From a bacterium (lineage in GTDB: Bacteria; Arandabacterota; Arandabacteria; Arandabacterales; Arandabacteraceae), in contig JALGWB010000001.1 in NCBI GenBank assembly GCA_025774405.1, forward strand, positions 16,609 to 80,608: a DNA stretch of 64,000 bases, given 5' to 3'. The first letter of the stretch is position 1. The number at the start of each line of letters is the position of its first letter. Shown piece by piece: positions 38,704 through 57,487 of the stretch. The position numbers and the translations under genes are program-made. The notes beneath the pieces were generated by a model, which did no database searches, was not told the origin of the DNA, and saw only the letters and a list, made by a program, of their open reading frames with translations.

Positions 38704-38729
38704 CCTTAGATACTTAGGGGTCCCCAACT

Positions 38730-39206
38730 ATGATTTTAGATGCAGGATCAGGCATGGCATCGAACCCAAGAGCCAACATACTCATGGACAAATATCTTCA
38801 AGGAGACAGTACCTCTCGTATAACGGGCACTCTTATGATTCGCAAAGGACAGACTATGATTTGTGGTGACCTTGAGGCCATGCCATTTCTGGATAAGTCC
38901 TTCGACATTGTTATTTGCTCTCAGACGCTCGAACATGTTGATAATCCTGAGAAAGCCTGTGCTGAGTTGGTGCGGGTAGGAAGGAGTGGTTTCATAACTG
39001 CGCCAAACGAGACAGTAGAAAGGCGTCGATATGAGCGTCGCGAGAAGCTCTATCACAAGTGGCTTATCAAGCAACGGGGCACTCACCTCGACTTCTATCT
39101 CAGAAGTCTCGTTCCAAGCCTCCCGATGATGGAGCATCCTAGCCAGGGCGTGGATATGGCTTGGAAAGGGAGCTTCACTTGGTCAGTGTTCAGAGAATCG
39201 CCATGA
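38730..39206 (+). CDS. class I SAM-dependent methyltransferase (Methyltransf_11-like)
   Basis: LEAMPFLDKSFDIVICSQTLEHVDNPEKACAEL post-motif II/III block. Confidence 0.6.
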   Translation: MILDAGSGMASNPRANILMDKYLQGDSTSRITGTLMIRKGQTMICGDLEAMPFLDKSFDIVICSQTLEHVDNPEKACAELVRVGRSGFITAPNETVERRRYERREKLYHKWLIKQRGTHLDFYLRSLVPSLPMMEHPSQGVDMAWKGSFTWSVFRESP

Positions 39207-40195
39207 CAAGACTCCCCAGAGTCCTATTCGTTAGCATAGCTCCGTCTCTCCACACGGAGTTCTGGGCTGCTGGCTTTATGAAGGCCCTTCGCAAAGTTGC
39301 CGTTCCACTGGCTTTCCCTTTCAGGAAAATGGCTCATGACCACGGGGCAGCCTACATGAACGAGACGCTAGTGGAAACTGCTCTGGAGTTTCGTCCTGAC
39401 CTGATCTTTATTAGGAAGGGGGAAAGCATTCTCGGCTCTAGCATTAAGACGCTCAGGGATTCCCTGCCTGCTTATATCATCTACTATTGTGGGGACTTCC
39501 GTCTCAATCCAGTCTCCTTCATCGTCGATATTGGACGATACGCAGATTGTACCATTTTCAACAACGAGGACGAGAAGGTTGCTGATAGATATCAGGTTGC
39601 GGGTGTGAGACATGTGGGTCCTTGGTGGGACGGTGGAATTGACCCAGAAGTCTTTTGCCCGCAAGACGTACCCAGAGCCTGGGACCTAGCCTTCATGGGC
39701 ACTAACGTCCCCTTGCCTCACAGGGGCTATCAGGTACGTCGCCAACTACTGGAGGCTATCGTCGAGAGTAACTACTCTCTTCACATCTTCGGTGGGGCTG
39801 AAGGCTGGAAGTACCTCCACACGAATACCCACCCGTTCGTTTATGGCCCTGCTTTCGCTAAGGCCTGTTCTCAATCGCGTATCACTCTGGGCGTCAATGG
39901 AGTGAACGACATGTATCTGTATGCTTCCTGGCAACGTACTTTCAAGTCAATGGCCAGTGGAGCGTTTCACCTTACTCACTATGTCCCTGGACTGGAGACG
40001 TTCTTTGAGAACCGCAAGCATCTGGTCTGGTTCATCTCCATACCTGAGGCGATGAGTCTCATTGCTTACTATCTCACTCACGACGAGGAACGTGAAGAAA
40101 TAGCCATGGCAGGCCGACAGGAGGTTCTTGCTCACTTCACTTGGGACGATGCTGTCGCAAGGCTTATGAGGATTTGGCAAAGTGACTGCTGTTGA
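39161..40195 (+). CDS. CgeB-like / GT1-type glycosyltransferase
   Basis: C-terminal FKSMASGAFHLTHYVPGLETFFENRKHLVWFISIPEAMSLIAYYLTHDEEREEIAMAGRQEVLAHFTWD parallels the CgeB/DUF3880 spore-glycosylation family. Confidence 0.55.
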   Translation: MERELHLVSVQRIAMTRLPRVLFVSIAPSLHTEFWAAGFMKALRKVAVPLAFPFRKMAHDHGAAYMNETLVETALEFRPDLIFIRKGESILGSSIKTLRDSLPAYIIYYCGDFRLNPVSFIVDIGRYADCTIFNNEDEKVADRYQVAGVRHVGPWWDGGIDPEVFCPQDVPRAWDLAFMGTNVPLPHRGYQVRRQLLEAIVESNYSLHIFGGAEGWKYLHTNTHPFVYGPAFAKACSQSRITLGVNGVNDMYLYASWQRTFKSMASGAFHLTHYVPGLETFFENRKHLVWFISIPEAMSLIAYYLTHDEEREEIAMAGRQEVLAHFTWDDAVARLMRIWQSDCC

Positions 40196-40865
40196 ACAAT
40201 ACCGTAGGGACTTCGCCACGTACATGAGCCTTCCTGGAGCTGAGAGGTGTAGACTCCAAATGTATCCTCGTCTTGAGGATAAGACCGCATCAACTCCCCT
40301 GGATGCCTATTACTTTCGACAAGATACCTGGGCGTTCAAGCGGATAGTAGACCTCAAGCCTAGCAGCATAGTAGATGTAGGATCGACTGCGCTCCTCGTG
40401 GGAATTCTTGCCCAGATGTTTCCTACAACGAGTATCGATATAAGGCCCATTCCAGTATCTCTTCCTGGATTAACATGTAGGCAAGGCTCGATCACTAATC
40501 TCCCCTTCAAAGACGCCTCAGTTGAGCTCCTGAGCAGCCTATGTGTGATAGAGCATATAGGTCTAGGTCGATACGGCGACAAGCTCGATCCGCTCGGTAG
40601 CATCAAAGCCTGCAAGGAGATCTCGAGGGTGCTCAAGCCTGGTGGACATTTCATAATGAGCACTCAAGTGAGTCATACCCCTGCCCTCTGCTTCAATGCG
40701 CACCGAATCTTCACGCAGGCCCAAGTTCTGGATATGTTGCCAGCCTTCTCGGTAACGGATGAGGCGTTCTTCTTCCCTCGGCCTGGCAATGCAGAAGACA
40801 TAGAGGCACTCACGGGTTTCAGGTTCTGCTTCTGGTGCGTAGACTTGGTTAAGGAGTCAGCATGA
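40182..40865 (+). CDS. SAM-dependent methyltransferase (DUF268-like)
   Basis: VDVGSTALLVGILAQ (motif I-like) ... LKPGGHFIMST. Confidence 0.55.
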   Translation: MTAVEQYRRDFATYMSLPGAERCRLQMYPRLEDKTASTPLDAYYFRQDTWAFKRIVDLKPSSIVDVGSTALLVGILAQMFPTTSIDIRPIPVSLPGLTCRQGSITNLPFKDASVELLSSLCVIEHIGLGRYGDKLDPLGSIKACKEISRVLKPGGHFIMSTQVSHTPALCFNAHRIFTQAQVLDMLPAFSVTDEAFFFPRPGNAEDIEALTGFRFCFWCVDLVKESA

Positions 40866-41665
40866 CGCTCTCGGTTGTAACTCCTAGCTACATTAACAAC
40901 CAGCAACGAGCTGATTGGGCCAGAGACTCTCTGGCTTCCCTCAGGGAAACTATCGGCGACGGCTACTTACATGTTGTGGTGCTTGACAAATCCCTTGAAT
41001 GGAATATTATTGCTCAGGCAATCTATAACCAGCCTAATGTAATGCTCATGCAGCGTCCCAAGCCTCTTGGCAATACTTCAGCTTTGCTAAAGGCCGTGAA
41101 GGAATCTCGCAAGTTGGGAGCAGATCTCTGTTTTGTCCATATGGACGATAACATCTATGTCCCCGAATTCGGACCTCTTCTCAGATATGCCCAGGACGCT
41201 TTCAGCAACGATAGGGAGTTGCAAGAAGTGCTCTTTGTTGGCTACCCGATCCTTATAAAGAGGCATAGCAAACCACTTCTTGGCAATCGCACAGGCCTAA
41301 CTATCGAGGAGAATCAAGTCTCTTTCGATACCATACAGTTGCACCCTACTCGCTGTACGGATTATACTCTCTGGTGGTCTTATTTTCATGACCGAATGGT
41401 GGACGGGCGATTTTGGGCAGTTGTCATGTGGATGGCTCTCTACCGAGCTGAGTTCTTGGAGAGTGTCCTTACACTTGCCCCTACGGGCCGGACGCTTGGT
41501 CAGGTTGAATCTTACTACAGAAACAGAAGCAACTGGGAGAGACTATCCCATCGCTTTCCAGGAAAGCTCGGTTACATAAACATGCAGTTCGGCGGTTTGG
41601 AGATGCACCATCATAGTCAGGAATGGTGTGAGATGATCCGTTTTCCTAATACGCCTGTGAGGTGA
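40862..41665 (+). CDS. GT-A-like glycosyltransferase (DxD HMDDN)
   Basis: LSVVTPSYINNQQR...VHMDDNIYVP layout resembles GT-A enzymes. Confidence 0.45.
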   Translation: MTLSVVTPSYINNQQRADWARDSLASLRETIGDGYLHVVVLDKSLEWNIIAQAIYNQPNVMLMQRPKPLGNTSALLKAVKESRKLGADLCFVHMDDNIYVPEFGPLLRYAQDAFSNDRELQEVLFVGYPILIKRHSKPLLGNRTGLTIEENQVSFDTIQLHPTRCTDYTLWWSYFHDRMVDGRFWAVVMWMALYRAEFLESVLTLAPTGRTLGQVESYYRNRSNWERLSHRFPGKLGYINMQFGGLEMHHHSQEWCEMIRFPNTPVR

Positions 41666-41701
41666 GACATATAGGAGAAGACTTACCTGTGAGGTGAAGG
41701 A

Positions 41702-42340
41702 ATGACTTACAGAGAGAATCCAGAACTAGGTCAGGACATGGTTAAGTTTGCCTTTCATCGTTGGCAGCAAGGAGAATATCTCTTAGAGCCTCCTCAGCGT
41801 CAAATCTACGAGAATATTGCGGTCAGAGCGAAAGGCAAGACGGTCTGTGATATAGGCTCTGGAGCGGGACTGGGAACTACTATCCTAGCACAAAGGGCTC
41901 AGTCAGTTATTGGCATCGAGAAGGTTGCGTCTTCCGTCAGGTTCTCTAGGAAATGTCATCCCCTAACAAATGTGCAGTTTCTGAATGAGGATATAGGGAA
42001 GTGCTCTCTTTCTGACAACAGTTTCGATGTAGTGGTGGCGGTTGAGGTGATAGAGCATATCGCAAACTACCAGGCAGCACTGGATCAGATGGCTCGAATT
42101 CTGAAAGAGTCTGGAACCCTATACATCTCGTCTCCTAACAGGAATCAAGATATTAGAGGAGGAGCGTCAGGCGCAGGCCCGCCAAGGAACAAGTATCATG
42201 TTCGAGAGTGGACAGCCGAGGAGTTTCGGCATATTCTTCTCTCGCGCTTCAGTCAGGTTAGGCTTTCTGACTATACCCTTGACCCTTGCCTAGACTCCTG
42301 TACGCGAGTCTCGCCAGTTATCGCGATCTGTCGAATATGA
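41702..42340 (+). CDS. class I SAM-dependent methyltransferase
   Basis: Motif I VCDIGSGAGLGT, then FDVVVAVEVIEHIANYQAAL...LKESGTLYISSPN. Confidence 0.7.
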   Translation: MTYRENPELGQDMVKFAFHRWQQGEYLLEPPQRQIYENIAVRAKGKTVCDIGSGAGLGTTILAQRAQSVIGIEKVASSVRFSRKCHPLTNVQFLNEDIGKCSLSDNSFDVVVAVEVIEHIANYQAALDQMARILKESGTLYISSPNRNQDIRGGASGAGPPRNKYHVREWTAEEFRHILLSRFSQVRLSDYTLDPCLDSCTRVSPVIAICRI

Positions 42341-43005
42341 GAACTCTGTGGATCGTTATTCCAGCAAAAGATGAGGCTGCTACTATTGCAGACCTAGTTG
42401 CCGAAGCCGCCCACTACGGAACGGTGTTAGTAGTTACCAGTGGGCCTTCAGACGATACTGGCCCAAGAGCTGCCAGCGCGGGAGCCCAGGTAATCTACAA
42501 CGGCCAGAGCATTGCAGGAAAGATAGTCACTGGCTGGCAGAGAGCCCTCGACAACAATGCGACACGAGTCATAGTCATGGATGCAGGCGGATCGCATAGG
42601 CCATCAGATATCCCCCGTCTCCTGGCAGCAGAGGCTGACATCGTAATAGGCAGTCGGTTTGTGGCTGGAGGCCAATATCATGGCAGATCGTGGCGCAGGG
42701 TATGCAGTCAAGTCATGGCTCTGCTCTGCAACCTAGCCCAACCAGGTAAACAGGTCCATGACTGGTCTAGCGGCTTCAGGTGTTATTCGGTAGAAGCAAT
42801 TGGGCAGCTACTAGCCGTCCATTATAAATCTGATATGCACGCTTGGCAAATCGAGGTGCTAGGCTGGGCTAGGCGCTTGCACCTTTCAGTTGAGGAAGTC
42901 CCTATACAGTATACTGCTGGGCACTCGTCTCTCTCCTGGGATGGGGCTCTCAGGGCTCTCAATATATTGTTAGACATCTTGCTCCGCAGGTGGGTAGTCG
43001 GATGA
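42286..43005 (+). CDS. family-2 glycosyltransferase, DPM1/GtrB-like (polyprenyl-phosphate sugar transferase type)
   Basis: LWIVIPAKDEAATI...VVTSGPSDDTG...RVIVMDAGGSHRPSDIPRLL...DIVIGSRF. Confidence 0.7.
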   Translation: MPRLLYASLASYRDLSNMRTLWIVIPAKDEAATIADLVAEAAHYGTVLVVTSGPSDDTGPRAASAGAQVIYNGQSIAGKIVTGWQRALDNNATRVIVMDAGGSHRPSDIPRLLAAEADIVIGSRFVAGGQYHGRSWRRVCSQVMALLCNLAQPGKQVHDWSSGFRCYSVEAIGQLLAVHYKSDMHAWQIEVLGWARRLHLSVEEVPIQYTAGHSSLSWDGALRALNILLDILLRRWVVG

Positions 43006-44075
43006 TATTCTACCTTGATACATACATTACTGACGAGCCTCTCCATCCTGCGTTTGTTTGGCCAAACAGGGAGATCAGGAACTCCTGTCCCCAGTATAAG
43101 ATGCCACGGAGAATAGATATCACAAAGTACACGCTTGCGAGTTATAAGATGATTCCGTGGACACATGTTGTCATCGCATACGATGTTGCTGATAAGGATG
43201 ATGAAAGCACGTTCCTGGACTTTGTGCAAGAAGTTTTCCCAGACGCAGATGTTAGTCGGCCTCGCTCCTCTAACCAGAAGACGTACAGGGCAAGAGTGGA
43301 GCAAGTTTGCAGTTTTGAGGATGACTTCATCTTTTATGCACCTAACAACGATCATCCCCTCATAGCAAGCAATCTCAATCACCTGCCCAAGTTACTCAAA
43401 AAGGCTTCAAGGTTCTCACAAAACTACCCATTTGTCTCCGTTGTCTACTCGCACTTCAGTGAGTTCGTCAACGCGCCTGTCGTTGGGAGTCCTTTCTACA
43501 GACAGTTCTCTAGCGACTCACGCATAGTAGAAGACGACGAGATTGCTACGAGCTTTGTGAGATTCAATGGCGACAACTCTTCTATCCAGATCGTCAATAG
43601 GAATCTCCTGCAACACTGGTTTTGCTCACATGATCTCGGTGATGCCAGAATCATCAGAGCAGAAGATGTTCGCAGGTTTCTTCCAACTCCTAACCAGTTG
43701 ATGATAGTGCCCAAGAAGGAGCTCTGTGCGCACTTTGACGGCTACTCGCATACAACTGGTATCACTAAGATCAGTCCTGACCAGATTCCTCCTCTATTCA
43801 TTCCAACAGGGTTCTTCGACAGCTCGATTCGGATCGCCTACGGATATCCAGAATACCGAGATGGCTGGGTAAACATAAACCCTTCTGCGAGGGATTTCAG
43901 TTTCCGCGACCGAAAGACGGGCACAGATCTGAAAATTGGTCTTCAGGACATACCTCTTTTCTGGAAGAGCAGAATCGCAGAAATAGACATCAATGTGAAT
44001 GCCGACCTCGAGCGAATTAAGGAGGGCAGAGAGAAATACTTTGAGACAGTTCGTAACCCCTGGAGGAAAGCCTAG
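42990..44075 (+). CDS. hypothetical protein inside the glycosylation cluster
   Basis: 361-aa ORF, no motif recognised. Confidence 0.45.
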   Translation: MGSRMIFYLDTYITDEPLHPAFVWPNREIRNSCPQYKMPRRIDITKYTLASYKMIPWTHVVIAYDVADKDDESTFLDFVQEVFPDADVSRPRSSNQKTYRARVEQVCSFEDDFIFYAPNNDHPLIASNLNHLPKLLKKASRFSQNYPFVSVVYSHFSEFVNAPVVGSPFYRQFSSDSRIVEDDEIATSFVRFNGDNSSIQIVNRNLLQHWFCSHDLGDARIIRAEDVRRFLPTPNQLMIVPKKELCAHFDGYSHTTGITKISPDQIPPLFIPTGFFDSSIRIAYGYPEYRDGWVNINPSARDFSFRDRKTGTDLKIGLQDIPLFWKSRIAEIDINVNADLERIKEGREKYFETVRNPWRKA

Positions 44076-44650
44076 TGATCAAGTTGCATATAGGCTGTGG
44101 CCCCAGAGTGCTAAAGGGATGGATAAATATCGATCTCAAGTTCACTCCTTACCAGGCGTACCTGAAATACTACACTGACAAGTACTACCCAGAGTCCGCT
44201 AGGGGCGACAAGTCAGATTTTCTTGCACTAGATGTGTCTAGGCAGCCTTTGCCCTTTCCTGACAATTCGGTAGATGTCGTCTTCCATGAGGACTTCCTTG
44301 AGCACCTGAACCAGCGTAGCCAAGTTCTCTTCCTAGCTGATTCTCTCCGAGTCTTGAAGCCAGACTCCATTCATCGAATTGATACGCCTAACCTGTTAGC
44401 ATCGATGCGCGATCACTCTAATTTCTCCCTTGGCTTTCAGGGTGTCTATGTCCATGAGTGGGATAAGTCCAAGCATCTCAATGTATTGACCCCTAGCTCG
44501 CTTGAAGAGATGGCTCTTATGGTTGGATATTCAACAGTAGTCTTCACAGGTAGAAACCAAAGTGCGTCGCCTCTGATTCCGCCTGAGTATCGCCCTGATC
44601 CAAGAGATCGGCCCGAGAACGGAAACATCTTTGCAGATTTGGTTGCTTAG
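44075..44650 (+). CDS. SAM-dependent methyltransferase
   Basis: HIGCGPRVLKGWINID (motif I) ... LRVLKPDSIHRIDTPN. Confidence 0.55.
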   Translation: MIKLHIGCGPRVLKGWINIDLKFTPYQAYLKYYTDKYYPESARGDKSDFLALDVSRQPLPFPDNSVDVVFHEDFLEHLNQRSQVLFLADSLRVLKPDSIHRIDTPNLLASMRDHSNFSLGFQGVYVHEWDKSKHLNVLTPSSLEEMALMVGYSTVVFTGRNQSASPLIPPEYRPDPRDRPENGNIFADLVA

Positions 44651-45539
44651 GAGTAGCGCCTTGAGGATATTTGTTCTTCCTGTGTCGTCTCAGTTTCAAC
44701 CTCCTCCCATGAAGATTCTCTATCCTCCTCACAACAAGCGAGACTACGGCATTGAGCAAGACTTCGCTCAGCATCTCACAGAGCCTTCTAGTGACTGGAC
44801 GATCGCAGAGTCTTCTGACGTTGCTGATTGGCATTACCTTCCTATCTACTGGACACGTTACCATGTGACACATAACTATGCCAAGACTGGCCTAGAAGCA
44901 CTTCAGCGTGAAGTTGCCCGAAGAATCATTGACGACAAAAGGACCTTTACAATTTGCCAGTATGATGATGGGCCTTTGGTAGACCTTGGTAGAACTGTGC
45001 AGTTTCTAGGGTCTCGCAAAGGGGAAGAAGGCATCGACGTCCCTCTTCTTTCCTATCCTCATAAGCTCCCTGCAGTTGATCCCCCTAAACAGTGGTTAGC
45101 GTCTTTTGCAGGGAGACTCCGAACGCACGAGGTTCGCGCAGACATGCAGCGTGTTCTGGGGCCTCGCCAGGACATTGACATTCAGGACACACGCAAAACC
45201 AGTAGATTCTTTGTAGACTTGATCCTTCGGTCGTATGTTTCCCTCTGTCCCAGGGGATGGGGTGGCTCGTCTTTTAGGTTTTATGAATCTATGCAACTGG
45301 GAGTAGTGCCCCTTCTCATTGGCAGCATAGACACCCGCCCCTTCAAACGTTTCCTGAACTGGAGTATAATGAGTCTCTATGCTCGCACGGCCGAGGAAGC
45401 AAATGTGTCCCTCGACTCCCACACTCTGACAGAATTGCTAGAGATGGGGCGATGTGCCAAGAAAGCCTGGCATCAAGATCTATCGTTTGGGCACTGGCAC
45501 AAGTATGTGTTTCAGGAATTGGAGGCTCTATGGCATTAA
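44631..45539 (+). CDS. exostosin-like (GT47-type) glycosyltransferase
   Basis: SLCPRGWGGSSFRFYESMQLGVVPLLIG closely matches the exostosin C-terminal catalytic block. Confidence 0.6.
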   Translation: MQIWLLRSSALRIFVLPVSSQFQPPPMKILYPPHNKRDYGIEQDFAQHLTEPSSDWTIAESSDVADWHYLPIYWTRYHVTHNYAKTGLEALQREVARRIIDDKRTFTICQYDDGPLVDLGRTVQFLGSRKGEEGIDVPLLSYPHKLPAVDPPKQWLASFAGRLRTHEVRADMQRVLGPRQDIDIQDTRKTSRFFVDLILRSYVSLCPRGWGGSSFRFYESMQLGVVPLLIGSIDTRPFKRFLNWSIMSLYARTAEEANVSLDSHTLTELLEMGRCAKKAWHQDLSFGHWHKYVFQELEALWH

Positions 45540-46984
45540 AGCACCATCAGCACTCTCTACAGGCCGAGGCGGTATGGGGGAAAGCCTACGGCGTGTTTGA
45601 TCGAATTGTTCAGTTGAGAGGTTTCAGGACTGGCGTCGAGGTTGGCGTTGCTTTTGGAGGGCACATAGAAGCACTTCTCAACATCCCCACTATTGAGAAG
45701 GTCTATGGAGTTGATCCCTATCAGCAAACAGGAACTAGCAGCTCCTTGGGCCTCTCGCAGTCTGAGATGGATACCCTCTATCTCTTCGTTCTGAACAGAC
45801 TTGCCCCGTTTGGCGATCGTTACCAGCCTGTACGAAAAAGCTCGGTAGAGGCATCGTCTATCATCCCGCAGGAGATTGATTTCGTCTACATAGACGCTGA
45901 CCATTCCTACCAGGAAGTTATGGCGGATCTCTGTGCTTGGTTTCCCAAAGTACGCGAAGGCGGGATAATTGGCGGCCATGACTATTCTCATCCTGACTTG
46001 CCAGGAGTTAAGAAAGCCGTGGATAGATTCTTCAGTCGGTTTGCTCAGCGCGTTCACTCACTAGGCGAATATGTCTGGTGGATAGAGAAGAAGATGCCCA
46101 GCATCAGCTTCGTATTGCCTGCATACAACTGCGCTGAGTTCGTCGAGGAGTCTGTGAAGTCTATTCAGAAGGGGAACTTTGAAGATGGCGACGAGCTCAT
46201 CATTGTTGACGATGGCTCATCTGACAATACCCTGATGATTTTGCAGAGACTGGCCGCGTACTATCCCTCAATAAGGCTTCTCAAACACGACAGTAATAGG
46301 GGCGCATCAGCAGCCAGGAATACAGCGATAGCCAGTGCCAAGAACTCCCTACTCTTCAACCTAGACTCAGATAATATCCTAGTGCCAGGCAGCATCCCCA
46401 AACTCAAAACATATTTGATTAGCTCCAATGCTGATATAGCAGTGTTCGAGGAGACGCGTTTCTTTAGAAACGGAACTGGCCAGATAACACACAGCTGGAA
46501 GTATGGCCCAGGTCTGTTGACTCTATCCGACTGCTTGGCTGGCCAAATAACTCCTGGGGCTAGTGGGAACTATATGTTCACTAAGGAGTCCTGGGCCAAA
46601 GCTGAAGGTTACCCTGAGTTCGCAAAGACCTATGAAACCTGGGGATTCGCCTTCAGGCAGCTAGCCACAGGCTCCAAAATGATGGCAATGCCCGACTCTT
46701 TCTATCTCCATAGGTATGGCCATTCGTCACTCTGGGTGCGAGAAGGAGGAAATCGGAACGCTTCTCGGAAAACTCTAAAGATGATTCTGCCCTTTCTTGG
46801 CCTGCTTGACTACAAGGACGTTGAATACATAATGAGCCACAAGGAGACCTGGCTTACTAACTTATCTCAGCACCCAATACGAGTCAAGGGGAGCGCTCCT
46901 GGGAATTCGGGCAGCATCAAACTCCAGAGCCCTCCACTTGACTATATGGAGCTTTTGTGTCAGAATATAGACGAGGAGACATAA
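45530..46984 (+). CDS. bifunctional TylF/MycF-like O-methyltransferase (N-terminus) and GT2 glycosyltransferase (C-terminus)
   Basis: N-terminus GVEVGVAFGG...FVYIDADHSYQEVMADL...GGIIGGHDY (Methyltransf_24 pattern); C-terminus SISFVLPAYNCAEF...LIIVDDGSSDNT...NRGASAARN. Start set to the internal Met MALKHHQ. Confidence 0.65.
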   Translation: MALKHHQHSLQAEAVWGKAYGVFDRIVQLRGFRTGVEVGVAFGGHIEALLNIPTIEKVYGVDPYQQTGTSSSLGLSQSEMDTLYLFVLNRLAPFGDRYQPVRKSSVEASSIIPQEIDFVYIDADHSYQEVMADLCAWFPKVREGGIIGGHDYSHPDLPGVKKAVDRFFSRFAQRVHSLGEYVWWIEKKMPSISFVLPAYNCAEFVEESVKSIQKGNFEDGDELIIVDDGSSDNTLMILQRLAAYYPSIRLLKHDSNRGASAARNTAIASAKNSLLFNLDSDNILVPGSIPKLKTYLISSNADIAVFEETRFFRNGTGQITHSWKYGPGLLTLSDCLAGQITPGASGNYMFTKESWAKAEGYPEFAKTYETWGFAFRQLATGSKMMAMPDSFYLHRYGHSSLWVREGGNRNASRKTLKMILPFLGLLDYKDVEYIMSHKETWLTNLSQHPIRVKGSAPGNSGSIKLQSPPLDYMELLCQNIDEET

Positions 46985-47571
46985 TGATTGACTACAAGAC
47001 AACCGCTGGTTTCTCCCTGACACTTGAGGAGCGTGAGTTCCTCAAAGACTCTGCTGAGGGCTCTGGCTCCATTGTCAGTATCGAGTCTGGCCCCTGCGCT
47101 GCGCTATGGTGCTTCAGGGCAGGCGCGCCTGAGTCTTCCATCTACAGCGTGAAGGAGCAAGGATCGATCATAGATGGTGATCCAGGAGTAACTATCCTTA
47201 GTGGCTTTTCTGACTTCCCTGGAAACTCTGTAGACCTGCTCTTCATAGATGGCTCACATGCTTTCAAGGATGTTCTACTCGACTTAGTTACTTGGCAAGA
47301 TAGCATCCCGCTGAAAGGCTTAGTGGTCCTTCACGACTATGAGCACAACAATATGCCTGAAGTTAAGCTGGCTACTGAGTTCTGGCTCAAGAACGTCACC
47401 AGGAAAACCTGGCAGCCGATTGAGGCTCCTGGCTCTCTCTTTGCCCTCAGGCGTATTGCTCGTGGGAGGAAGCCAGCTGTTGTCCCCGTAGAGGCCCTCA
47501 AGGAACAGCACGCTGAGCAAGAGAGCGTATCAGAGAAGGCAACCGGCCAAGTGGACCCTAGACAGGACTGA
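46984..47571 (+). CDS. TylF/MycF-like (Methyltransf_24) SAM-dependent O-methyltransferase
   Basis: LLFIDGSHAFKDVLLDLVTWQDSIPLKGLVVLHDY; TAATG stop/start overlap with the upstream gene. Confidence 0.6.
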   Translation: MIDYKTTAGFSLTLEEREFLKDSAEGSGSIVSIESGPCAALWCFRAGAPESSIYSVKEQGSIIDGDPGVTILSGFSDFPGNSVDLLFIDGSHAFKDVLLDLVTWQDSIPLKGLVVLHDYEHNNMPEVKLATEFWLKNVTRKTWQPIEAPGSLFALRRIARGRKPAVVPVEALKEQHAEQESVSEKATGQVDPRQD

Positions 47572-47918: not shown

Positions 47919-50900
47919 ATGTCTGAGCTTCTGATTCGCAAGGTCGGCAACATCTGCTTTGTGCTGGACGAGAAGGGCAAAGATGTCTCAGGTGACTATG
48001 CAGACAGCCTTAACCAGTACAGAGATCTCGGGTTGTCCTCATTCTCCCTGTCAGCGCTGGGCTATGAGAATTCTCTCTATCCTACTGACTGCCTGGAACT
48101 ATCAGGGGAGAGCCTGGCTGAGCTCTCCCATCAGGAACGGGTAGACTTGTTCCTCACGGCTCTTCCCCAAGACCAGGATATCTCCTTCCGGCAATCGAAG
48201 CAAGTAGAGCTATTCAAACCCTTCACTCCGCTGAAGGCCCGCACTGGCTATGGTCTCTATGAGTTCAATAACAAACAAGACCTCTGGGAGATGTGGGCCA
48301 AGGAGCGCATAGAGGCCAAGCGACCGATTGCTGTTCAGGCCAAGTTTGACGGTATCCGGCTTATCGTATTCAGGAAGGGCGACAGAGTTCAGATGCTCAC
48401 CGAGGATAAGAAACGAGACCGTGCTTCTATTCTCCCTGAAGTCGTAGCAGAGATTAAATCTCTGCCAGGCGACTCCTGCATACTGGATGTGGAAGCTGTC
48501 ATTTGGCAGGAGAATCAGCCCATTCCTCGTCGTGAGATGATAAAGATGGTTGTGGGCAAAACACCTCTCAGGGGTGAGGATATCCACATTAATGTCCACG
48601 ATTGTCTGCTAGTAGATGGTAAGCCTCTTAACACTGAGCCCTACTCGGTGCGATTGGCAGCTCTTGACGAACTTCTCCCTAAGGATAAGAAGTTTCTCAG
48701 AAAGGCTCAAACTTGGGTAGCTAAGACTAAAAGCGAGTTCCTGTCTGCCCTCGACAAGGCATCTGCTTATCCTGGCTCAGAAGGAGCTATGGTCAAAACC
48801 TTGGATAGCGACTATCCTATTCGGGGTCGTACCCGAGAAGAGACTGCTGACTGGGGAAAGTTAAAGTTGGCGGTGGAGCTGCATTGCAAAGTCATAGGGC
48901 GTACTCGCAAGCCTAATCCCTGGCCTCCTGACGAACGCCCCAAACGCAATCTCCAGGGTGATGAGGCCCTTAAAGCCTTTCGTAAGTTGCAGAAAGGCTC
49001 CAAGACTTTCTACTATCGCTGTGCCCTTCGGGACGGTAAGAAGCTCATCCCTATCGACTCTGAGCACAAGCTGACTCCTGGAAACCTCTCCCTCAAGTGG
49101 GACGCCGAACACGAGGGCGGAGTCTGGAAAGGCACTGACGACCCTGAAATCTGGGAGATGGCTAAGGGTTTTGAGAACAGGCCCCGAGGCGACTGGGCTT
49201 ATGGCAATACCTACGCCGTTAAGTACGACCCTCCGCCGAAACTGGGCGATATCATCACAGTGGCTCCCATCCTGATGCGAGCCTGGAAGGACAACAGCAC
49301 TACTCACTACTCCTGGACTTTTCCTAGATGCAAAGAGTTTGATCCTACCCGTACACAGCCTGACACCGTCCAGGACGCAGAGCGCATCGTGGCAAAGTCT
49401 CCCAAGTCCATCCGCAAGCATGTTCGTCCTGGGCCTTTTGGGCATCCTGGAGGCAAAACCGTCTTGCTGAAGCATATCCTGCCTAGGATACCTGCCCATG
49501 AGACTTATTGTGAGCCTTATGTCGGATCAGGGGCTGTATTCTTCGCCAAGCCCAAAGCCCACAAGTCAGTTCTAGGGGATACAGACCCTGAGATAATAGC
49601 AGCCCTCCGCTTTGTTCGGGACGCCTCAGCAGAGGATATCGAATGGCTGCGCAAGCAGAACTGGCAGCCGTCCAAGGGTCGCTGGCAGTTCCTCAAGGAT
49701 CAAAAGCCAGTCCGCAAACGAGAGCGCTTCTATCGCTTTAGATACCTGGATATCAACTCCTGGGCTCACTCGCCTGCTAAAGGCTTCGCCCGTAGCAACC
49801 AGCCCGCATCCATGAAAGCCGAAATGGATAAGATCAGGGCAGGCCAGCAGAAACTACGTGGCAATGTCTCTATCGTCCAGCAAGACGCCTTCAAGACTAT
49901 GCGGGAGAATGACTCACTGTCTACTTTCCACTACATTGATCCGCCCTATTGGGGCAGTGGTGACCTTCAGCCCTATGGTGGTAAGGCCCCTGACCCCGAA
50001 GCCCTTGTTAAGTTCCTCAAAGGACTACGCGGCAAGTGGCTACTATCCATGGCAGACAAACCTAGAACGCGCAAGGCCTTCAAGGATTTCAATATCAAGT
50101 CAGTCTCTCGTCAAATGACTTATACAGTTTACTCGCGTAAGACTAAGGCTGGTCAGCCAACACGCACTCGCCGTGAGCTCCTAATTGCTAACTACGACTT
50201 CGCCGATCTCCACGAAGCCGTAGTTCCTCCTGGCGAAGGCGAGAAACCCACCCACAAGAAGCAGCGTGCTGAGGCTGAGCGCAAGTTCGGCGATCCCTAC
50301 ATGGTTCACCAACCTCCCGACAAAACCTTTCCCTTTGTCTATATGCACCATGAGCGGGGTATCTGGACTCAGGCTGAGCTTGTGGGCCTACGCGCCGCAC
50401 TCAAGAACGCCAGACGATATCCTGATCTTATTCCTGACATCTGGAAACGTTACAAGCCTGTCGTCCTAACGACTAGCCTAGAGTCTCTCAGGCGAGACGC
50501 AGAGGCAACCTCCGAGAAGCGGGGTGATGTCACTGCTGCTGTCCACAAGCACCTTGACGAGAAACCTCCCAAAGTTCTTCCTTCCAACAACAAGATACTC
50601 AATGTGGGCAATGTCCATGGTGACTGGCGAATGCGCTCTCCAGAGGGCGAGTTCCTCATTGGGTGGACCCTCTCTACCCCGTCGGTTGTACTCCAGTTTG
50701 CCGACGGCAAAACCGTCTATCCTATCAGGGACAGATTCCTTGAGAACAAGGAGGGCGACAAGATAGTAGCCTACCGCAAGTGTCCTAATCCACTCTGTGA
50801 CGAGGAGCGCTATTTACGCCTAGTTGAATCCAATCCTCATGAGAGCGTGTCCCAGATGTTCGCCAGCGAGGAGGGCGAAATAATTCTCGGTTCCCAACGT

Positions 50901-51950
50901 CCGTTAGCTATGCGATTGGCAGAATCAGGTGCAATCCAACTCTTGGCAGGCTTGCCAGAGAATCTTACTCAGGAATCGGTTCAGCCGATGGTATGGCTCA
51001 CTATCGTCAATCCTAAGCGTCTCGTCTATCAGGTCTCAGCTGGAGGCGTAGGTGCAACGGCGAAGACTGGCGCTAGGTTCATCTTTCGGGATGCTGGGAA
51101 AGTGGCATATGGTTGCCAAAAGTCGGATTTCCATGAGGGGTTTTTCTGGTTCAACCGCCACAAAAATCTCTCAGGCCGCTGGGGAGTCCAGGAGCTAGCA
51201 GGTAGGCCTGAGTACACAAAGCTCGGAACTGAGGGTAACTGGTGGATGGTCAATCATGTCGTCAAAGACCCTCGGCCCTACATCCTCCGCTACTCCCGTG
51301 ATGCTAAGGAGCGGCAGGCTAAAAAGGAACATCTCAAACACATCATCTGGAACGCCGATGTCCTCAAAGTTCTCAAGGCTGACCCTCATGGCCGCAAATG
51401 GCTAGGGCTAACCTCCCAGAAGAAACTAGACGAGAAGTGGGCTGAGTTCTCTGCTGGCAATGGAGAGTTTCGCCTTCGCAAATCGCTCAGCTTCAGCTCG
51501 AAGCTCTTTCACTCACCGGCCGCCGAAAAGCAACTGTTTGTCTATGGGGCAATTCTCATCCCAGGCAAAACTGACGCTCAGGGCCACCATGTTACAGCAA
51601 TAGAGGTCGCTAAGGCCATTCGCACAATGGGGGACATTGGTTTCGATATTGAGCATTCTGAGAAAGTCTCTCCCAACGATCTTAGGCTTACCCAAATCTT
51701 CCAAGCCCCAGTTGGGTTCAAGATTGGCAGCCAGCATTTCAAGAAAGGCACTGCTATTGCCGAGATCGCTGTTCTGTCGCCCGCGATTCGCAAGCGTGTT
51801 CTCTCAGGTGAGATCAGGGGCTTCTCGATCTCCGGGAAAGGGGTTATGGACAACTCGGCAGGCCTGTACGACATTAAGATTCAGAAGATCTCCCTTGTTG
51901 GGAGCCCTGCTATCAAAGAGGATTTCATAATAAAGGTTGAGGACGTGTAA
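47919..51950 (+). CDS. 1343-aa multidomain fusion: ATP-dependent DNA-ligase-like nucleotidyltransferase + Dam-like N6-adenine DNA methyltransferase + unknown middle region + C-terminal prohead-protease-like (XkdF/DUF2213-type) domain
   Basis: Ligase motifs I AKFDGIR (K142), III ILDVEAVIW, IIIa/IV INVHDCLLVDGKPL..PYSVRLAAL, V EGAMVK, VI DWGKLK. Dam motifs FGHPGGKTVLLKHILPRIP..YCEPYVGSGAVFF and HYIDPPYWG. C-terminus ILIPGKTDAQGHHV..GFDIEHSEK..GFSISGKG. Confidence 0.7.
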   Translation: MSELLIRKVGNICFVLDEKGKDVSGDYADSLNQYRDLGLSSFSLSALGYENSLYPTDCLELSGESLAELSHQERVDLFLTALPQDQDISFRQSKQVELFKPFTPLKARTGYGLYEFNNKQDLWEMWAKERIEAKRPIAVQAKFDGIRLIVFRKGDRVQMLTEDKKRDRASILPEVVAEIKSLPGDSCILDVEAVIWQENQPIPRREMIKMVVGKTPLRGEDIHINVHDCLLVDGKPLNTEPYSVRLAALDELLPKDKKFLRKAQTWVAKTKSEFLSALDKASAYPGSEGAMVKTLDSDYPIRGRTREETADWGKLKLAVELHCKVIGRTRKPNPWPPDERPKRNLQGDEALKAFRKLQKGSKTFYYRCALRDGKKLIPIDSEHKLTPGNLSLKWDAEHEGGVWKGTDDPEIWEMAKGFENRPRGDWAYGNTYAVKYDPPPKLGDIITVAPILMRAWKDNSTTHYSWTFPRCKEFDPTRTQPDTVQDAERIVAKSPKSIRKHVRPGPFGHPGGKTVLLKHILPRIPAHETYCEPYVGSGAVFFAKPKAHKSVLGDTDPEIIAALRFVRDASAEDIEWLRKQNWQPSKGRWQFLKDQKPVRKRERFYRFRYLDINSWAHSPAKGFARSNQPASMKAEMDKIRAGQQKLRGNVSIVQQDAFKTMRENDSLSTFHYIDPPYWGSGDLQPYGGKAPDPEALVKFLKGLRGKWLLSMADKPRTRKAFKDFNIKSVSRQMTYTVYSRKTKAGQPTRTRRELLIANYDFADLHEAVVPPGEGEKPTHKKQRAEAERKFGDPYMVHQPPDKTFPFVYMHHERGIWTQAELVGLRAALKNARRYPDLIPDIWKRYKPVVLTTSLESLRRDAEATSEKRGDVTAAVHKHLDEKPPKVLPSNNKILNVGNVHGDWRMRSPEGEFLIGWTLSTPSVVLQFADGKTVYPIRDRFLENKEGDKIVAYRKCPNPLCDEERYLRLVESNPHESVSQMFASEEGEIILGSQRPLAMRLAESGAIQLLAGLPENLTQESVQPMVWLTIVNPKRLVYQVSAGGVGATAKTGARFIFRDAGKVAYGCQKSDFHEGFFWFNRHKNLSGRWGVQELAGRPEYTKLGTEGNWWMVNHVVKDPRPYILRYSRDAKERQAKKEHLKHIIWNADVLKVLKADPHGRKWLGLTSQKKLDEKWAEFSAGNGEFRLRKSLSFSSKLFHSPAAEKQLFVYGAILIPGKTDAQGHHVTAIEVAKAIRTMGDIGFDIEHSEKVSPNDLRLTQIFQAPVGFKIGSQHFKKGTAIAEIAVLSPAIRKRVLSGEIRGFSISGKGVMDNSAGLYDIKIQKISLVGSPAIKEDFIIKVEDV

Positions 51951-52005: not shown

Positions 52006-52224
52006 ATGGCCTTAGATTCCTTCCTAGGACTTGACAAGCGCAGCATAACCGGTTATAATGAAGATAACAAAGCTCATCCCATAGTGCGGGCCTGGATTAG
52101 CCAACTAATTCAGTCTAAAGAGCTAGCCCTGGTCCTAGACAGGTATGAGTTTCGGCGTATCGATGTGACGCTCTCAGCTAGTGGAGGTAAGGCGGTACTC
52201 AAACCGACGATCTCGTTTCGCTAA
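52006..52224 (+). CDS. hypothetical small protein
   Basis: 72-aa ORF between the protease-like domain and the capsid gene. Confidence 0.3.
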   Translation: MALDSFLGLDKRSITGYNEDNKAHPIVRAWISQLIQSKELALVLDRYEFRRIDVTLSASGGKAVLKPTISFR

Positions 52225-52313
52225 TCACATAACCGCTCGCAATAGGCGGAGCAACTGTTTTGTAGTGAGGAGGAGACTACAGCCTCCTCTCTTTCATTCT
52301 AAGGGAGGTAACA

Positions 52314-54992
52314 ATGGGTTTCACATTAAAGGTGAAAGGTTGGATTGAGGACTTCGTGAAGGCGGCTGAGGCGTCCAAAGAGGAGATTCCCAAGGCGGCC
52401 CAGGGTAGCTTCACTCGCCTGAAACTACTCTCGGCCCAGAAGCCTGTCAAGGATGTGGAGTCTAGCCGCAACTCCGAGGGTCTGGAGAAGCTTCAGGCAT
52501 TCCTGAAGAGTGTGAAGGGCAAAGCCAAGTTGGAGACTGTTGCCAAGAAAGCCATTGACAACCTGACCGAATACTTTGGGAAGGACTATGGGGCAAAAGG
52601 GGAGGTCGCAAAAGCTTCCACTTATGTCTGCCCAAAGTGCGGCTACAAGGGCAAGCCTGACAAAGACGGCAACTGTCCCAAGTGTGGCACTAAGATGAAG
52701 GTGGATTACGGGAAAGCCTACGGCGACTACGGCAAGACCAAGTATGAGGATTATGGCAAGACCGAAGTTGCCAAATCTGAGCCCCATCCCCACGGCAAGC
52801 ATGTCGTCTATTGCCCTAAATGTGGCTATGAGGAGACAGTCGAGGCTGGCGTCAAGGCTAAGGACAAGAAGTGTCCCAAGTGCGGAACTCGGATGCGGGC
52901 TAGGGAAATAGGTGAGCGGCGCGAGGCTGTCCACTTCAGGACCCTAACTGGCCGACTTCTTGAAGCTGTTGAAGGCACAGAGGGTAGCCAGTGGGAAGTC
53001 ACTCTCATCGAGGCAGGCGTCTCTGAGAATCGCACCAAGTACAGTCTCCCTGTTCTTGAAAAAGCGCTTCCCCTCTTCGATGGTGCTAAGTGCTTCGCTG
53101 ACCATTCAACTGCCTCTGAGCGTCGCGAGCGCCCTGGACGCTCTATCAGAGACATCGTAGGCTGGTTTGAAAGCCCGAAAGTTCTCGGCGACGGAGTCAA
53201 AGGAATTGGGGCTGTCTTCAACATCCTAGAATCAGAACGATGGTTTCGAGATAAAGTCGTAGAGGCCTGGGAGCGAGGCAAACGAGACCTCATTGGCTTC
53301 TCGATCAGCGCCATCGGCAGACAGAAACTGATTCGCGAGGAGGACAAACTCCTCAAGGAAGTCGTTTCGATTGACAAAGTACAATCTGTAGATGCTGTCA
53401 CTGAGCCTGCAGCTGGTGGCAAATTCGTGAAAATGCTAGAAGGGAAGGAGGCAGAAGAAGTGAGCCAACTAGATATTCTGAACACCATCACACTGGAGAA
53501 TCTGAGAGAGGTGAGGCCAGACTTGTTCCCTGAGCCTGCTTCTGAGCCAGAGCCTGATTTGGAGCCTACGCCTGAGCCAGAGACTGAACCATCTCCTGAT
53601 CTTTCTCACCTCACTGAGGCGGTCAAAGAGATCGAGAGCCTAAAGGCTACCCTGGCTGAAATGCAGGATACGTCTCGGAAGACGGATCTCAAGGCGCAGC
53701 TTGACTCGGCGCTTCAGTCCAGCGGTCTTCCCAAGCCTGTCCAGGATAAACTTGGGCGACGCTTCTCTTCTCTCGAATTCACCTCGGAGACTCTCACTGA
53801 GGCGATTCGCGAGGAGAAGGAAGTCTTAGCCCAAATTCTGCCACCAGAGCGTCGTTACTTCCCATCAATCAAGATGGGCGAGAGCGAGCGGGACAAGATT
53901 GACAAGGCTATGGATGGTCTCCTGGAGGGCGAAGATATCGACGGGATTCCTCGCTTCAGGAATCTGCGTGAAGCCTACTCGATAGTCACTGGTACACCGA
54001 TTCTGGATGTCAGAGCTCAGCATATCCTGAATGCGTCGTCAGCCTTTGACTCGTCAGTTGGTTTCTTGCGAGAGGAGATATCGACAAGCACTTGGACGAA
54101 CGTCTTCGGAACCAGCATGACCAGGAGACTGCTTAAGGAATACCGCAAACCTGGCTATGATGACTGGAAGAAGATTTGCTCCAGCGTCGAGACTCTCGAC
54201 AACATGAAGTCCCAGGAGCGAGTCCGCATAGGTGGCTATGTTGCCCTCAGCTCGGTTTCCGAGGGAAGCACCTACACAGAGCAGTCGTATGATCCTCCAA
54301 ATGAGATGCAGAACTACACCCCGACCAAAAAGGGTAACTTGGAGAGTATCACACTGAAAGCTATCGCCAACGACGACCTTGGTGCTCTACGGCGAATTCC
54401 CAAGGCTATGGCCTTTGCAGCCAAGGTGGGTGTCTACAAGGCAGTTTTCGACGTTCTGACCACGAACGCTGCAATGAACTATGATTCAGTGGCTCTGTTC
54501 AACGCGGCCAGTCACGGGAACTATGGGACAACTGCTCTTAGCTATGAAGAGCTCACAAGTGCCAAGAATGCTATGCTGGAGCAGATGGAGCCAGTAGGGT
54601 CTGGTGGAACTGAGCTCACCTATCTGGACGTGGAGCCCAAGTACTTGCTGGTTCCACTAGAGCTCCGAGGCACAGCCTGGGACCTCATCAATTCGCCAGT
54701 TAGGGCACTTGCCAGTTCCTTCAACGCAACTCAGCCCAACATGCACTATAAGACGCTTGAGCTGATTGTAGTGAGGCACTGGACTGATTCTAACAACTGG
54801 TACTTGATCGCAGACCCTTCATTGATTGCAACCATCGAGGTTGGTTTCTATGGTTCTCAGGAGCCCGAAATCTTTACCGAGTTGGCCAATGCTGGGTCGA
54901 ATTTCACTGCTGATAAGCTCCGCTACAAGATTCGTCATATCTATGGGGTAGCAGCTCTTGAGCATCGTGGAATGTACGCCGAGATCGTGTGA
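52314..54992 (+). CDS. scaffold-domain / major capsid protein fusion (892 aa) with two zinc ribbons and a Pro/Glu-rich linker
   Basis: Strong RBS AAGGGAGG; N-terminal about 400 aa is Lys/Glu-rich coiled-coil-like with CPKCGYKGKPDKDGNCPKCG and CPKCGYEET..CPKCG; linker PEPASEPEPDLEPTPEPETEPSP; C-terminal about 450 aa has the composition and position of an HK97-fold capsid protein. Confidence 0.6.
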   Translation: MGFTLKVKGWIEDFVKAAEASKEEIPKAAQGSFTRLKLLSAQKPVKDVESSRNSEGLEKLQAFLKSVKGKAKLETVAKKAIDNLTEYFGKDYGAKGEVAKASTYVCPKCGYKGKPDKDGNCPKCGTKMKVDYGKAYGDYGKTKYEDYGKTEVAKSEPHPHGKHVVYCPKCGYEETVEAGVKAKDKKCPKCGTRMRAREIGERREAVHFRTLTGRLLEAVEGTEGSQWEVTLIEAGVSENRTKYSLPVLEKALPLFDGAKCFADHSTASERRERPGRSIRDIVGWFESPKVLGDGVKGIGAVFNILESERWFRDKVVEAWERGKRDLIGFSISAIGRQKLIREEDKLLKEVVSIDKVQSVDAVTEPAAGGKFVKMLEGKEAEEVSQLDILNTITLENLREVRPDLFPEPASEPEPDLEPTPEPETEPSPDLSHLTEAVKEIESLKATLAEMQDTSRKTDLKAQLDSALQSSGLPKPVQDKLGRRFSSLEFTSETLTEAIREEKEVLAQILPPERRYFPSIKMGESERDKIDKAMDGLLEGEDIDGIPRFRNLREAYSIVTGTPILDVRAQHILNASSAFDSSVGFLREEISTSTWTNVFGTSMTRRLLKEYRKPGYDDWKKICSSVETLDNMKSQERVRIGGYVALSSVSEGSTYTEQSYDPPNEMQNYTPTKKGNLESITLKAIANDDLGALRRIPKAMAFAAKVGVYKAVFDVLTTNAAMNYDSVALFNAASHGNYGTTALSYEELTSAKNAMLEQMEPVGSGGTELTYLDVEPKYLLVPLELRGTAWDLINSPVRALASSFNATQPNMHYKTLELIVVRHWTDSNNWYLIADPSLIATIEVGFYGSQEPEIFTELANAGSNFTADKLRYKIRHIYGVAALEHRGMYAEIV

Positions 54993-56323: not shown

Positions 56324-57487
56324 ATGGCCCGCTATGGGAGAGTTCTTCAGTCCAGACGTCAGCAACCTTTAAGGGTGATAGCTCCTTGCTATGAACTAGC
56401 AGCTAGTGGCTATTATCGGGTTCTGCTACCGCTCAAGGTCTTGCTCGACAGGGGGGCTATCGAGGCAGTTTGGAAGGGGATGTTACCCTGCAAGCCAGGG
56501 GAGAAGCCTGAGCGCGGCTCTCGACTTGCTAATTTGATGGCTCAACTCCTCAATTGGGCTAACGTCTACTTCCTAGAGAGAGAGGAACGAGAGAACCTTA
56601 TTCCCATACTTGAGAAAGCCAAACGACTCGGCAAGGCTATCGTGATGGACATAGATGACCATGTAGTTGCCTTTCCTGATATTCCTCAAAGGCAGGTATC
56701 GGATTTTTGGAAGGAGCGAGTGCCCTATTTCCTGAAGATCCTCCAGCAGGTTGATTTGTTGATTACCACTACCGACAGACTAGCAAGGAGTTATAAGGAG
56801 TACCTGGGCGATGGTGCCGAGACAGTTAGTATTCCAAACTTCATCGATACGAGGCATCCTCGCTGGCAAGTTCAGCCTAGCGAAAAGACTGACGGGACAA
56901 TCACTATTGGCTGGATGGGCGGCCCGACTCACATAGATGATCTGGAACTCCTCCGAGAGCCGCTCTCTATTATTCTGAACCGATACCCCAAGGCTGTCTT
57001 CAAGTGTGTAGGGCTGATTCCAGAGTGGTTGGACAGTTTGCCTTCCGGCCAGGTCGTCAGGAGTGAGGGCTATTCTGGCCTTGCTGACTATCCAAAGCGC
57101 TTCGCAGATTTCGATATAGGACTTATCCCACTCACTGACAATGAGTTCAATCGGAAGGGTAAATCAGCGTTAAAGTATCTCGAATATTCGATGTTCGGAA
57201 TTGCCTCAGTTGTCAGCAAAGTGCCCGCTTATTGGGGAGCGGTTAGCAGGAAGCGAGGCTTTCTAACGCCCAATACGACCGAAGATTGGATCAAGTCCAT
57301 AGAAACACTTATCACCAGGGAAGCCCTTCGCAAATCCCTGGGCAATGCGGCCAAAGACTATGTTCTCAAGCAGCGTTCTATCGATGGCAACGCCTATCGT
57401 TGGGCTGCTGCCTTTGAGCAAGCTCGTCGAATCAGACGGAGCCGGAATCAAATCCTAGTGCCTGCACTAGAAGGAGTAGCAATATGA
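56324..57487 (+). CDS. GT1-family (GT-B, Glycos_transf_1) glycosyltransferase
   Basis: ITIGWMGGPTHIDD... and the C-terminal block KGKSALKYLEYSMFGIASVVSKVP typical of retaining GT4-type enzymes. Confidence 0.6.
   Translation: MARYGRVLQSRRQQPLRVIAPCYELAASGYYRVLLPLKVLLDRGAIEAVWKGMLPCKPGEKPERGSRLANLMAQLLNWANVYFLEREERENLIPILEKAKRLGKAIVMDIDDHVVAFPDIPQRQVSDFWKERVPYFLKILQQVDLLITTTDRLARSYKEYLGDGAETVSIPNFIDTRHPRWQVQPSEKTDGTITIGWMGGPTHIDDLELLREPLSIILNRYPKAVFKCVGLIPEWLDSLPSGQVVRSEGYSGLADYPKRFADFDIGLIPLTDNEFNRKGKSALKYLEYSMFGIASVVSKVPAYWGAVSRKRGFLTPNTTEDWIKSIETLITREALRKSLGNAAKDYVLKQRSIDGNAYRWAAAFEQARRIRRSRNQILVPALEGVAI

Follow-up and report, generated by a model that had tools for sequence, protein, structure and literature searches.

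We analysed a window of 64,000 nucleotides, the whole stretch from position 16,609 to 80,608 of the forward strand of contig JALGWB010000001.1 (assembly GCA_025774405.1), which includes a major capsid gene consisting of a single open reading frame (ORF) of 892 residues. This ORF is a member of a known family of protease-scaffold-major capsid fusions (PHROG 29592 / 4523): an assemblin-fold protease with conserved Ser and His, a helical scaffold segment and a C-terminal HK97-fold capsid domain are found one after the other in the same reading frame. The window protein differs from the family in featuring, in addition, an extension of about 200 residues with two zinc ribbons and, as judged by sequence comparison, this rare, conserved, putative zinc-ribbon extension is the unusual part of the protein. 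The whole is probably one head-assembly polyprotein, composed of a variable ribbon-bearing extension, an assemblin-fold protease, an acidic linker, a helical scaffold and an HK97-fold capsid, where each subunit would bring its own protease and the ribbons would be passengers. The initial annotation had proposed instead that the first 400 residues or so form one scaffold-like domain carrying the zinc ribbons; the ORF and its two CPKCGY...CPKCGT units are real, while the domain boundaries are different. The features along the gene are the following.

52301..52308, + strand: Shine-Dalgarno sequence AAGGGAGG, 5 nucleotides before the ATG at 52314 (direct sequence reading)
52314..54992, + strand: whole ORF, 892 residues, comprising N-terminal extension, prohead protease, acidic linker, scaffold and HK97-fold major capsid protein (ORF reading and domain matches)
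52314..52613, + strand: residues 1-100, four short helices forming two helical hairpins, Lys/Glu-rich (AlphaFold helices 3-20, 27-41, 54-66 and 71-88; model confidence about 75)
52614..52706, + strand: residues 101-131, zinc ribbon 1 with C106, C109, C121 and C124 (CPKC motifs; model confidence 75-88)
52707..52784, + strand: residues 132-157, Tyr/Gly/Lys-rich linker with DYGK repeats, predicted disordered (sequence and AlphaFold)
52785..52928, + strand: residues 158-205, zinc ribbon 2 with conserved flanks, HPHGKH...C167, C170, C187, C190...RMRAREIGERRE (conservation)
52956..52967, + strand: residues 215-218, L-L-E-A, candidate cleavage motif at the border between extension and protease, E217 (motif conservation; local model confidence below 50)
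52971..53447, + strand: residues 220-378, assemblin-fold prohead serine protease with candidate catalytic residues H264 (53103-53105), S330 (53301-53303) and D360 (53391-53393) (PHROGs, AlphaFold, Foldseek and conservation)
53526..53606, + strand: residues 405-431, acidic, Pro-rich (PEP/TEP) linker, predicted disordered (composition and AlphaFold)
53607..54074, + strand: residues 432-587, helical, delta-like scaffold domain with no Cys (AlphaFold and homology)
54066..54077, + strand: residues 585-588, L-R-E-E, candidate cleavage site before the capsid core, E587 (motif conservation; local dip in model confidence)
54075..54989, + strand: residues 588-892, HK97-fold major capsid core, the predicted mature protein of about 305 residues (Pfam and Foldseek)

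In the PHROGs database, phrog_29592, a family of 893 positions whose function is not annotated, could be aligned end to end with residues 212-892 (E-value, E, 7e-129); phrog_4523, described as "major head and protease protein", matches residues 427-889 (E 9e-44), and phrog_15531, "head maturation protease", residues 219-509 (E 2e-22). A full-length AlphaFold2 model, built on a 97-sequence alignment, has a mean predicted local distance difference test (pLDDT) score of 82 and sharp domain boundaries; a second alignment, of 147 homologues, was also used to evaluate conservation. Searching PDB sequences with the whole protein returned weak zinc-ribbon noise alone, with E of at least 0.1. Comparisons at closer range rely on two relatives from IMG/VR, L005 (64% identical, on a 91-kb contig) and L004 (60-71% identical). 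No start codon between residues 380 and 600 is preceded by a convincing Shine-Dalgarno sequence, and an internal start for a shorter scaffold-capsid product was not seen.

The region at residues 220-378 is beta-rich and globular in the full-length model, with pLDDT values of 85-98, and a separate model of residues 211-400 reached a pLDDT of 91. The best PDB match of the protease model, as found by Foldseek, is T4 gp21 (5jbl, probability 1.00, TM-score 0.51-0.57), pseudorabies virus assemblin being the next one; among the viral models of BFVD, 184 match at E<=1e-3, under the names of capsid maturation, prohead, XkdF, HK97-family or T4 (U9) protease. G235, S330 and D360 are invariant in the 97-sequence alignment, with H264 just below 90%, while the alignment of 147 sequences keeps G235 and S330 without exception, and H264 and D360 in at least 90% of its members. 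Going by the models and the conserved residues, this region is a predicted prohead serine protease, not a coiled-coil scaffold. Of the earlier description of the first 400 residues as K/E-rich and coiled-coil-like, only the helical character of residues 3-88 is retained, since residues 133-160 and 198-219 are predicted disordered and residues 220-378 belong to the protease. A scaffold or delta domain of about 400 residues is likewise not tenable, as a complete prohead protease lies within it, and the true delta-like domain is found further on, at residues 432-587.

The acidic PEP/TEP linker noted earlier does exist: residues 401-450 contain 10 Pro and 14 Asp/Glu, pLDDT falls below 50 within the linker, and disorder is predicted at residues 407-430. 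Its composition is kept in L005; the sequence is not kept in L004. The linker had been placed directly before the capsid core, but a helical scaffold of about 155 residues intervenes. Here AlphaFold predicts long helices at residues 432-470, 474-485 and 491-508, with pLDDT above 89, and residues 432-520 align with the scaffold part of a group of capsid-less protease-scaffold proteins (P0013-P0018), including the motif LP.P...I..RF. The delta-like domain is ordinary in kind and metal-free; the idea of a zinc-bearing scaffold is contradicted by its lack of Cys. The entire ORF contains 10 Cys, 8 of which fall in residues 106-190, the others being at residues 260 and 622. As to the capsid core, Pfam Phage_capsid_4 matches residues 586-888 (E 8e-36), and the compact C-terminal part of the model (about 520-892) matches the HK97, D3, phiXacJX1 and many other capsids in the PDB with a Foldseek probability of 1.00, confirming the identification of the ORF as a major capsid gene with an HK97-fold C-terminal half. 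A C-terminal half of another fold, named in the initial annotation as grounds for refutation, is thereby ruled out by structure prediction.

Short conserved motifs, located in flexible segments, mark both borders of the protease-scaffold part. The pattern [LIVFM]-x-E-[ASG] occurs within 30 residues upstream of the conserved W227 in 127 of 147 family members, mostly 10-13 residues upstream of it. At the border with the capsid core, a hydrophobic-x-E motif is present in 111 of 128 aligned homologues; the Glu corresponding to E587 is found in 122 of 129, and is followed by Ser or Ala in 111 of 126. Cleavage on the C-terminal side of Glu is common to all prohead proteases of T4 type and of giant phages (PMC5694885), and T4 gp21 is activated by self-cleavage of its N-terminus (PMC9958956). 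By analogy, we infer that the window protein is probably cleaved at, or close to, E217 and E587, which would yield a mature capsid protein of about 305 residues, starting near residue 588. The N-terminal part would have to lie inside the procapsid and be removed.

A plausible course of events can be outlined for the polyprotein. The capsid domains would assemble into a procapsid, with the N-terminal 587 residues or so of every subunit inside, and hence with one protease per subunit, as opposed to the tens of free copies of HK97- and D3-type phages. After assembly, the protease would cut after Glu at [LIVF]-x-E-[S/A] motifs, namely at E217 and E587. The zinc ribbons, lying outside the scaffold, would be small metal-stabilised passenger modules, related to free-standing phage mini-proteins, which enter the procapsid attached to the protease N-terminus and are set free inside it. 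Some observations weigh against this scheme. Nearly all of about 150 nearest representatives of the family have no ribbon, which implies that ribbons are not essential to the basic assembly mechanism. In the window protein itself, E587 is followed by Glu, instead of the usual Ser or Ala, and a conserved linear motif adjoining a domain could have a structural role instead of marking a cleavage site. Moreover, the net charge of the extension is +15 in the window protein, +20 in L005 and -23 in L004, a swing which, from these sequences, argues against simple electrostatic binding of DNA by the whole extension. General DNA binding by a basic extension, evaluated as a separate possibility, is weakened by the acidic extension of L004.

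The protease of HK97 is the product of a separate gene. In D3, too, protease and scaffold-bearing capsid protein are separate genes, and about 90 free protease copies are found per prohead (PMC12749128); the corresponding figure for T4 is about 55 copies (PMC9958956). The window protease resembles T4 gp21, HK97 gp4 and herpesvirus assemblin in its fold, in the conserved Ser and His, and in the x-E border motifs, reminiscent of T4-type Glu-specific cleavage, although sequence similarity to the solved proteases is undetectable; it differs from them in being fused in cis to its substrate, in a 1:1 ratio. With the capsid proteins of HK97 and D3, the window protein shares a helical scaffold N-terminal to an HK97-fold core, presumably removed by the protease; in contrast, the window scaffold is longer (about 155 residues) and is preceded by a linker, a protease and a ribbon-bearing extension.

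Fusions of this kind are common. With the protease domain as a query, 2779 representative clusters are found at E<=1e-3, of which 834 reach E<=1e-10, and a fused capsid domain is present in 116 of 163 family sequences examined. When isolated phages were searched by tblastn, lambdoid phages and phages of Pseudomonas, Ralstonia, Arthrobacter and Rhodobacter gave hits to genes in which the capsid part falls under features annotated as "head maturation protease" or "Clp protease". The nearest isolated phage is Microcystis phage Mae-JY22, whose homologue, annotated as hypothetical, is 30% identical over residues 223-892 and has no CxxC pair in its translated N-terminus. Residues 1-210 were unmatched by tblastn in 50,697 phage records.

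The length of the N-terminal extension varies within the family between about 5 and about 400 residues, with a median of 94, and motif counts describe the extensions as mosaics of unrelated modules, such as ChaB-like, SPGGxRG and helical hairpin ones; a further DGSYPI...IIKRA module was noted by eye only. The N-terminus of the fused proteases thus appears to be a hot spot for swapped-in small modules, including zinc ribbons, ChaB-like sequences and others. In P0029, the 285 N-terminal residues preceding the protease contain HLTL...HITL motifs and look, by eye, like a 2H-phosphoesterase (LigT-like), a hint that the proteases of this family can accept an enzyme as an N-terminal fusion partner. 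A unit forming a helical hairpin (..K.K.AI..L.SI.DELP..A...) occurs in P0003 both at the N-terminus and twice between protease and scaffold (residues 1-50, 345-400 and 400-450; z-score 10-12), and is also found in P0116 (residues 1-60). Residues 1-50 of the window protein weakly resemble the P0003 unit (z-score 3.3-4.4).

The ribbons themselves consist of four CPKC knuckles in two units, CPKCGY-x9-CPKCGT at residues 106-124 and CPKCGY-x14-CPKCGT at residues 167-190. In the AlphaFold2 model ribbon 1 extends over residues 102-132 and ribbon 2 over residues 161-197, each knuckle being flanked by short strands with pLDDT of 75-88; paired CxxC motifs, with four Cys per unit, are as found in zinc ribbons. 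Pfam zinc-ribbon families score below their cut-offs in the window protein, while L005 exceeds them (DZR, 34.1 against 27.3; Zn_Ribbon_1, 29.2 against 25). Matches from PHROGs and Pfam suggesting an HNH endonuclease, an IS91 or a Cas12f protein within residues 81-205 were discarded, because they cover the zinc-ribbon knuckles alone. That paired ribbons are unusual, as claimed in the initial annotation, holds true: any CxxC...CxxC pair is found in only 3 of the 150 or so nearest representatives (P0003, P0026 and P0116), and two pairs in none.

All eight ribbon Cys are kept in L004 and L005. Ribbon number varies among the closest relatives, being 1, 2 or 3: L005 has three, the third at the position of the Tyr/Gly/Lys linker of the window protein, and L004 has two, separated by a linker which is acidic instead of Tyr/Gly/Lys-rich. 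Identity to the counterparts in L005 and L004 is 61-68% for ribbon 1, 69-78% for the protease and 68-84% for the capsid part; the highest conservation in the whole protein, at 83-85% identity, is that of residues 158-205, which comprise ribbon 2 and its flanks. Conservation at this level, including residues other than Cys, points to one specific macromolecular partner. The knuckle codons of the two units differ at synonymous positions, indicating an old repeat, maintained at the protein level.

The ribbon-2 module is also found outside this group. P0013, a ChaB-protease-scaffold protein, contains it at 59% identity over 66 residues, about 270 residues before a protease domain with no more than about 28% identity. 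Searching with a profile of the module brings up free-standing mini-proteins of 50-100 residues (E 1e-14 to 8e-17, about 60% identity), such as P0167-P0170 (L006:8001-8159, L009:8001-8267), which carry the motif HPHGxH...CPxCG...CxxCGTRM. Their genes sit among small genes on phage-like or mobile-element-like contigs, outside head modules; neighbours include DUF932, HNH, N6_N4 methyltransferase and Phage_rep_O genes. P0013-P0018 and the mini-proteins P0167-P0170 share with the window protein the module HPHGxH..CPxCG..CPxCGTRMRA.E.GE, but have one ribbon, against two in the window protein, and P0013 has no fused capsid domain, a separate 449-residue gene coming next. Taken together, these sequences point to the ribbons as a mobile, autonomously folding module with a specific partner, which the variable N-terminal region of the protease probably acquired and which underwent local duplication; the same sequences speak against a role as a part of the scaffold, as a general pro-domain of the protease or as a merely basic, DNA-coating tail.

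Two further features lie immediately upstream of the capsid gene.

47919..51950, + strand: 1343-residue protein with DNA ligase, D12 methyltransferase, uncharacterised region and C-terminal XkdF-like protease domain (Pfam and PHROGs)
52006..52224, + strand: conserved 72-residue ORF between the 1343-residue protein gene and the capsid gene (62% identity to L005 6695-6901)

The domains of the 1343-residue protein follow the order ATP-dependent DNA_ligase_A_M, MethyltransfD12 (N6-adenine) and Peptidase_S78_2/XkdF, the last at residues 1200-1308 (nucleotides 51516-51842). It conforms to the pattern of polyvalent proteins: unrelated enzymatic domains are joined in a protein encoded beside head genes, with an assemblin-like peptidase at the C-terminus. 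In phage polyvalent proteins assemblin-like peptidases are always C-terminal, and likely act in virion assembly (Iyer et al., PMC5512222). The head module thus encodes two assemblin-like protease domains, between which no close paralogy could be detected (BLASTP E 0.18). A ligase-methyltransferase-protease gene lies directly upstream of the capsid gene also in L005. The uncharacterised part of the window protein's neighbour, at about residues 893-1182, is 34% identical to the end of the gene located 5' of the P0003 capsid gene (L012:3-734). It had been suggested that the zinc ribbons recruit this upstream cargo fusion. This finds no support, as the cargo has an XkdF/assemblin-like domain of its own, and no consistent co-occurrence of ribbons and polyvalent gene was seen in the contexts of P0005, P0006, P0013 and P0003. 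By analogy with other polyvalent proteins, the C-terminal protease-like domain would be a simpler, plausible route of the 1343-residue protein into the procapsid.

Various explanations other than a polyprotein with passenger ribbons were considered. The first 400 residues could still be seen as one oversized delta domain of HK97 type, with ribbons binding nucleic acid, the protease or the upstream cargo during assembly. Residues 1-100 are indeed helical and Lys/Glu-rich, their weak resemblance is to a hairpin unit which in P0003 also occupies the scaffold region, and the ribbon-bearing L005 shares the upstream ligase-methyltransferase-protease gene; nevertheless, we regard this as very unlikely, given the protease at residues 220-378, the Cys-free scaffold-homologous region at 432-587 and the cargo's own C-terminal protease-like domain, as in polyvalent proteins (PMC5512222), and given that P0013 has a ribbon, while the 5.5 kb or so upstream of it show a MuF gene and no polyvalent gene. 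Only slightly less improbable is that zinc ribbon 2 acts as a pro-domain or regulator, holding the fused protease inactive until the shell is assembled. Ribbon 2, the best-conserved segment, precedes the protease by about 25 residues; an enzyme joined 1:1 to its own substrate would presumably need tight control, and the N-terminus of T4 gp21 blocks the active site until self-cleavage (PMC9958956). However, most family members have no ribbon and many extensions are just 5-20 residues long; adjacency is not conserved either, the P0013 ribbon being some 270 residues away from the protease and that of P0116 being placed after it. An artefactual ORF, derived from mis-assembly or from a sequencing error fusing separate genes, was rejected as having virtually no chance of being correct: no points in its favour were found, an identical 892-residue protein is encoded on an 87-kb JGI metagenome contig (sample 3300033148) and is recorded from NCBI and JGI sources on three contigs, L005 and L004 keep an uninterrupted ORF with ribbons, protease and capsid domain, and more than 100 homologues share the fusion.

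A different fate of the extension is somewhat more probable, although we still consider it rather unlikely: residues 1-217 would be cargo, which stays in the head in hundreds of copies, associated with DNA, and is ejected with the genome like the T4 internal proteins. The positive charge of the extension in the window protein and in L005 would fit, as would the cargo-like modules in the extensions of relatives (ChaB-like and, by eye, the 2H-phosphoesterase-like stretch of P0029) and the free-standing homologues found among small genes on phage-like or mobile-element-like contigs. Zinc ribbons, besides, commonly bind nucleic acids. T4 itself loads about 360 copies of each internal protein by means of an N-terminal targeting peptide removed by gp21 (PMC9958956). 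Against these points, the L004 extension is strongly acidic despite its conserved ribbons, and several hundred fragments of 24 kDa would occupy space needed by a genome of about 90 kb. Even more tentatively, the extension might represent a new loading route, where a ribbon module, present in one copy per capsid subunit, and hence in hundreds per head, is freed at L-L-E217 and then has as its target either the packaged DNA or, following ejection, a component of the host, the mini-proteins being the unfused form of the effector; this we think unlikely.

With the polyprotein as the preferred reading, the annotation is corrected to a protease-scaffold-capsid fusion, a widespread and experimentally little-studied way of building a phage head, and the conserved x-E motifs provide a concrete prediction of maturation sites and of a mature capsid start near residue 588. 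If the modules are truly passengers delivered to the capsid interior, nature would offer here a means of filling phage heads with proteins in fixed stoichiometry, a point of interest to capsid engineering. Until a partner turns up, the zinc ribbons themselves are a minor curiosity.

The window as a whole resembles a tailed-phage genome, with terminase at about 30.9-33.2 kb, portal at 33.8-35.3 kb and tail tube at 57.5-58.4 kb; after the portal, a glycosyl-/methyl-transferase block, the ligase-methyltransferase-protease gene, the capsid gene and the tail tube follow in this order. The stretch from the portal gene to the capsid gene contains about 11 kb of genes for glycosyltransferases and methyltransferases (36753-47571, + strand), and a further glycosyltransferase gene lies between the head-tail genes and the tail tube (56324-57487, + strand). 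Sugar-modifying genes are also found beside the capsid genes of relatives: L005 has one for a DegT aminotransferase, and the P0006 contig encodes an epimerase and a radical SAM enzyme. The glycosyltransferase genes may relate to glycosylation of the virion or of the host surface.

A perfect match to the sigma-70 promoter consensus (TTGACA, 17-nucleotide spacer, TATAAT; 12/12) is present at 52031-52059 on the + strand, about 255 nucleotides before the capsid start codon, and falls within the conserved 72-residue ORF. Directly 5' of the ribosome-binding site of the capsid gene, at 52269-52290 (+ strand), a GC-rich stem-loop, GGAGGAG...CCTCCTC, with a T-rich tail after it, might serve as a terminator or attenuator, or influence translation by its structure.

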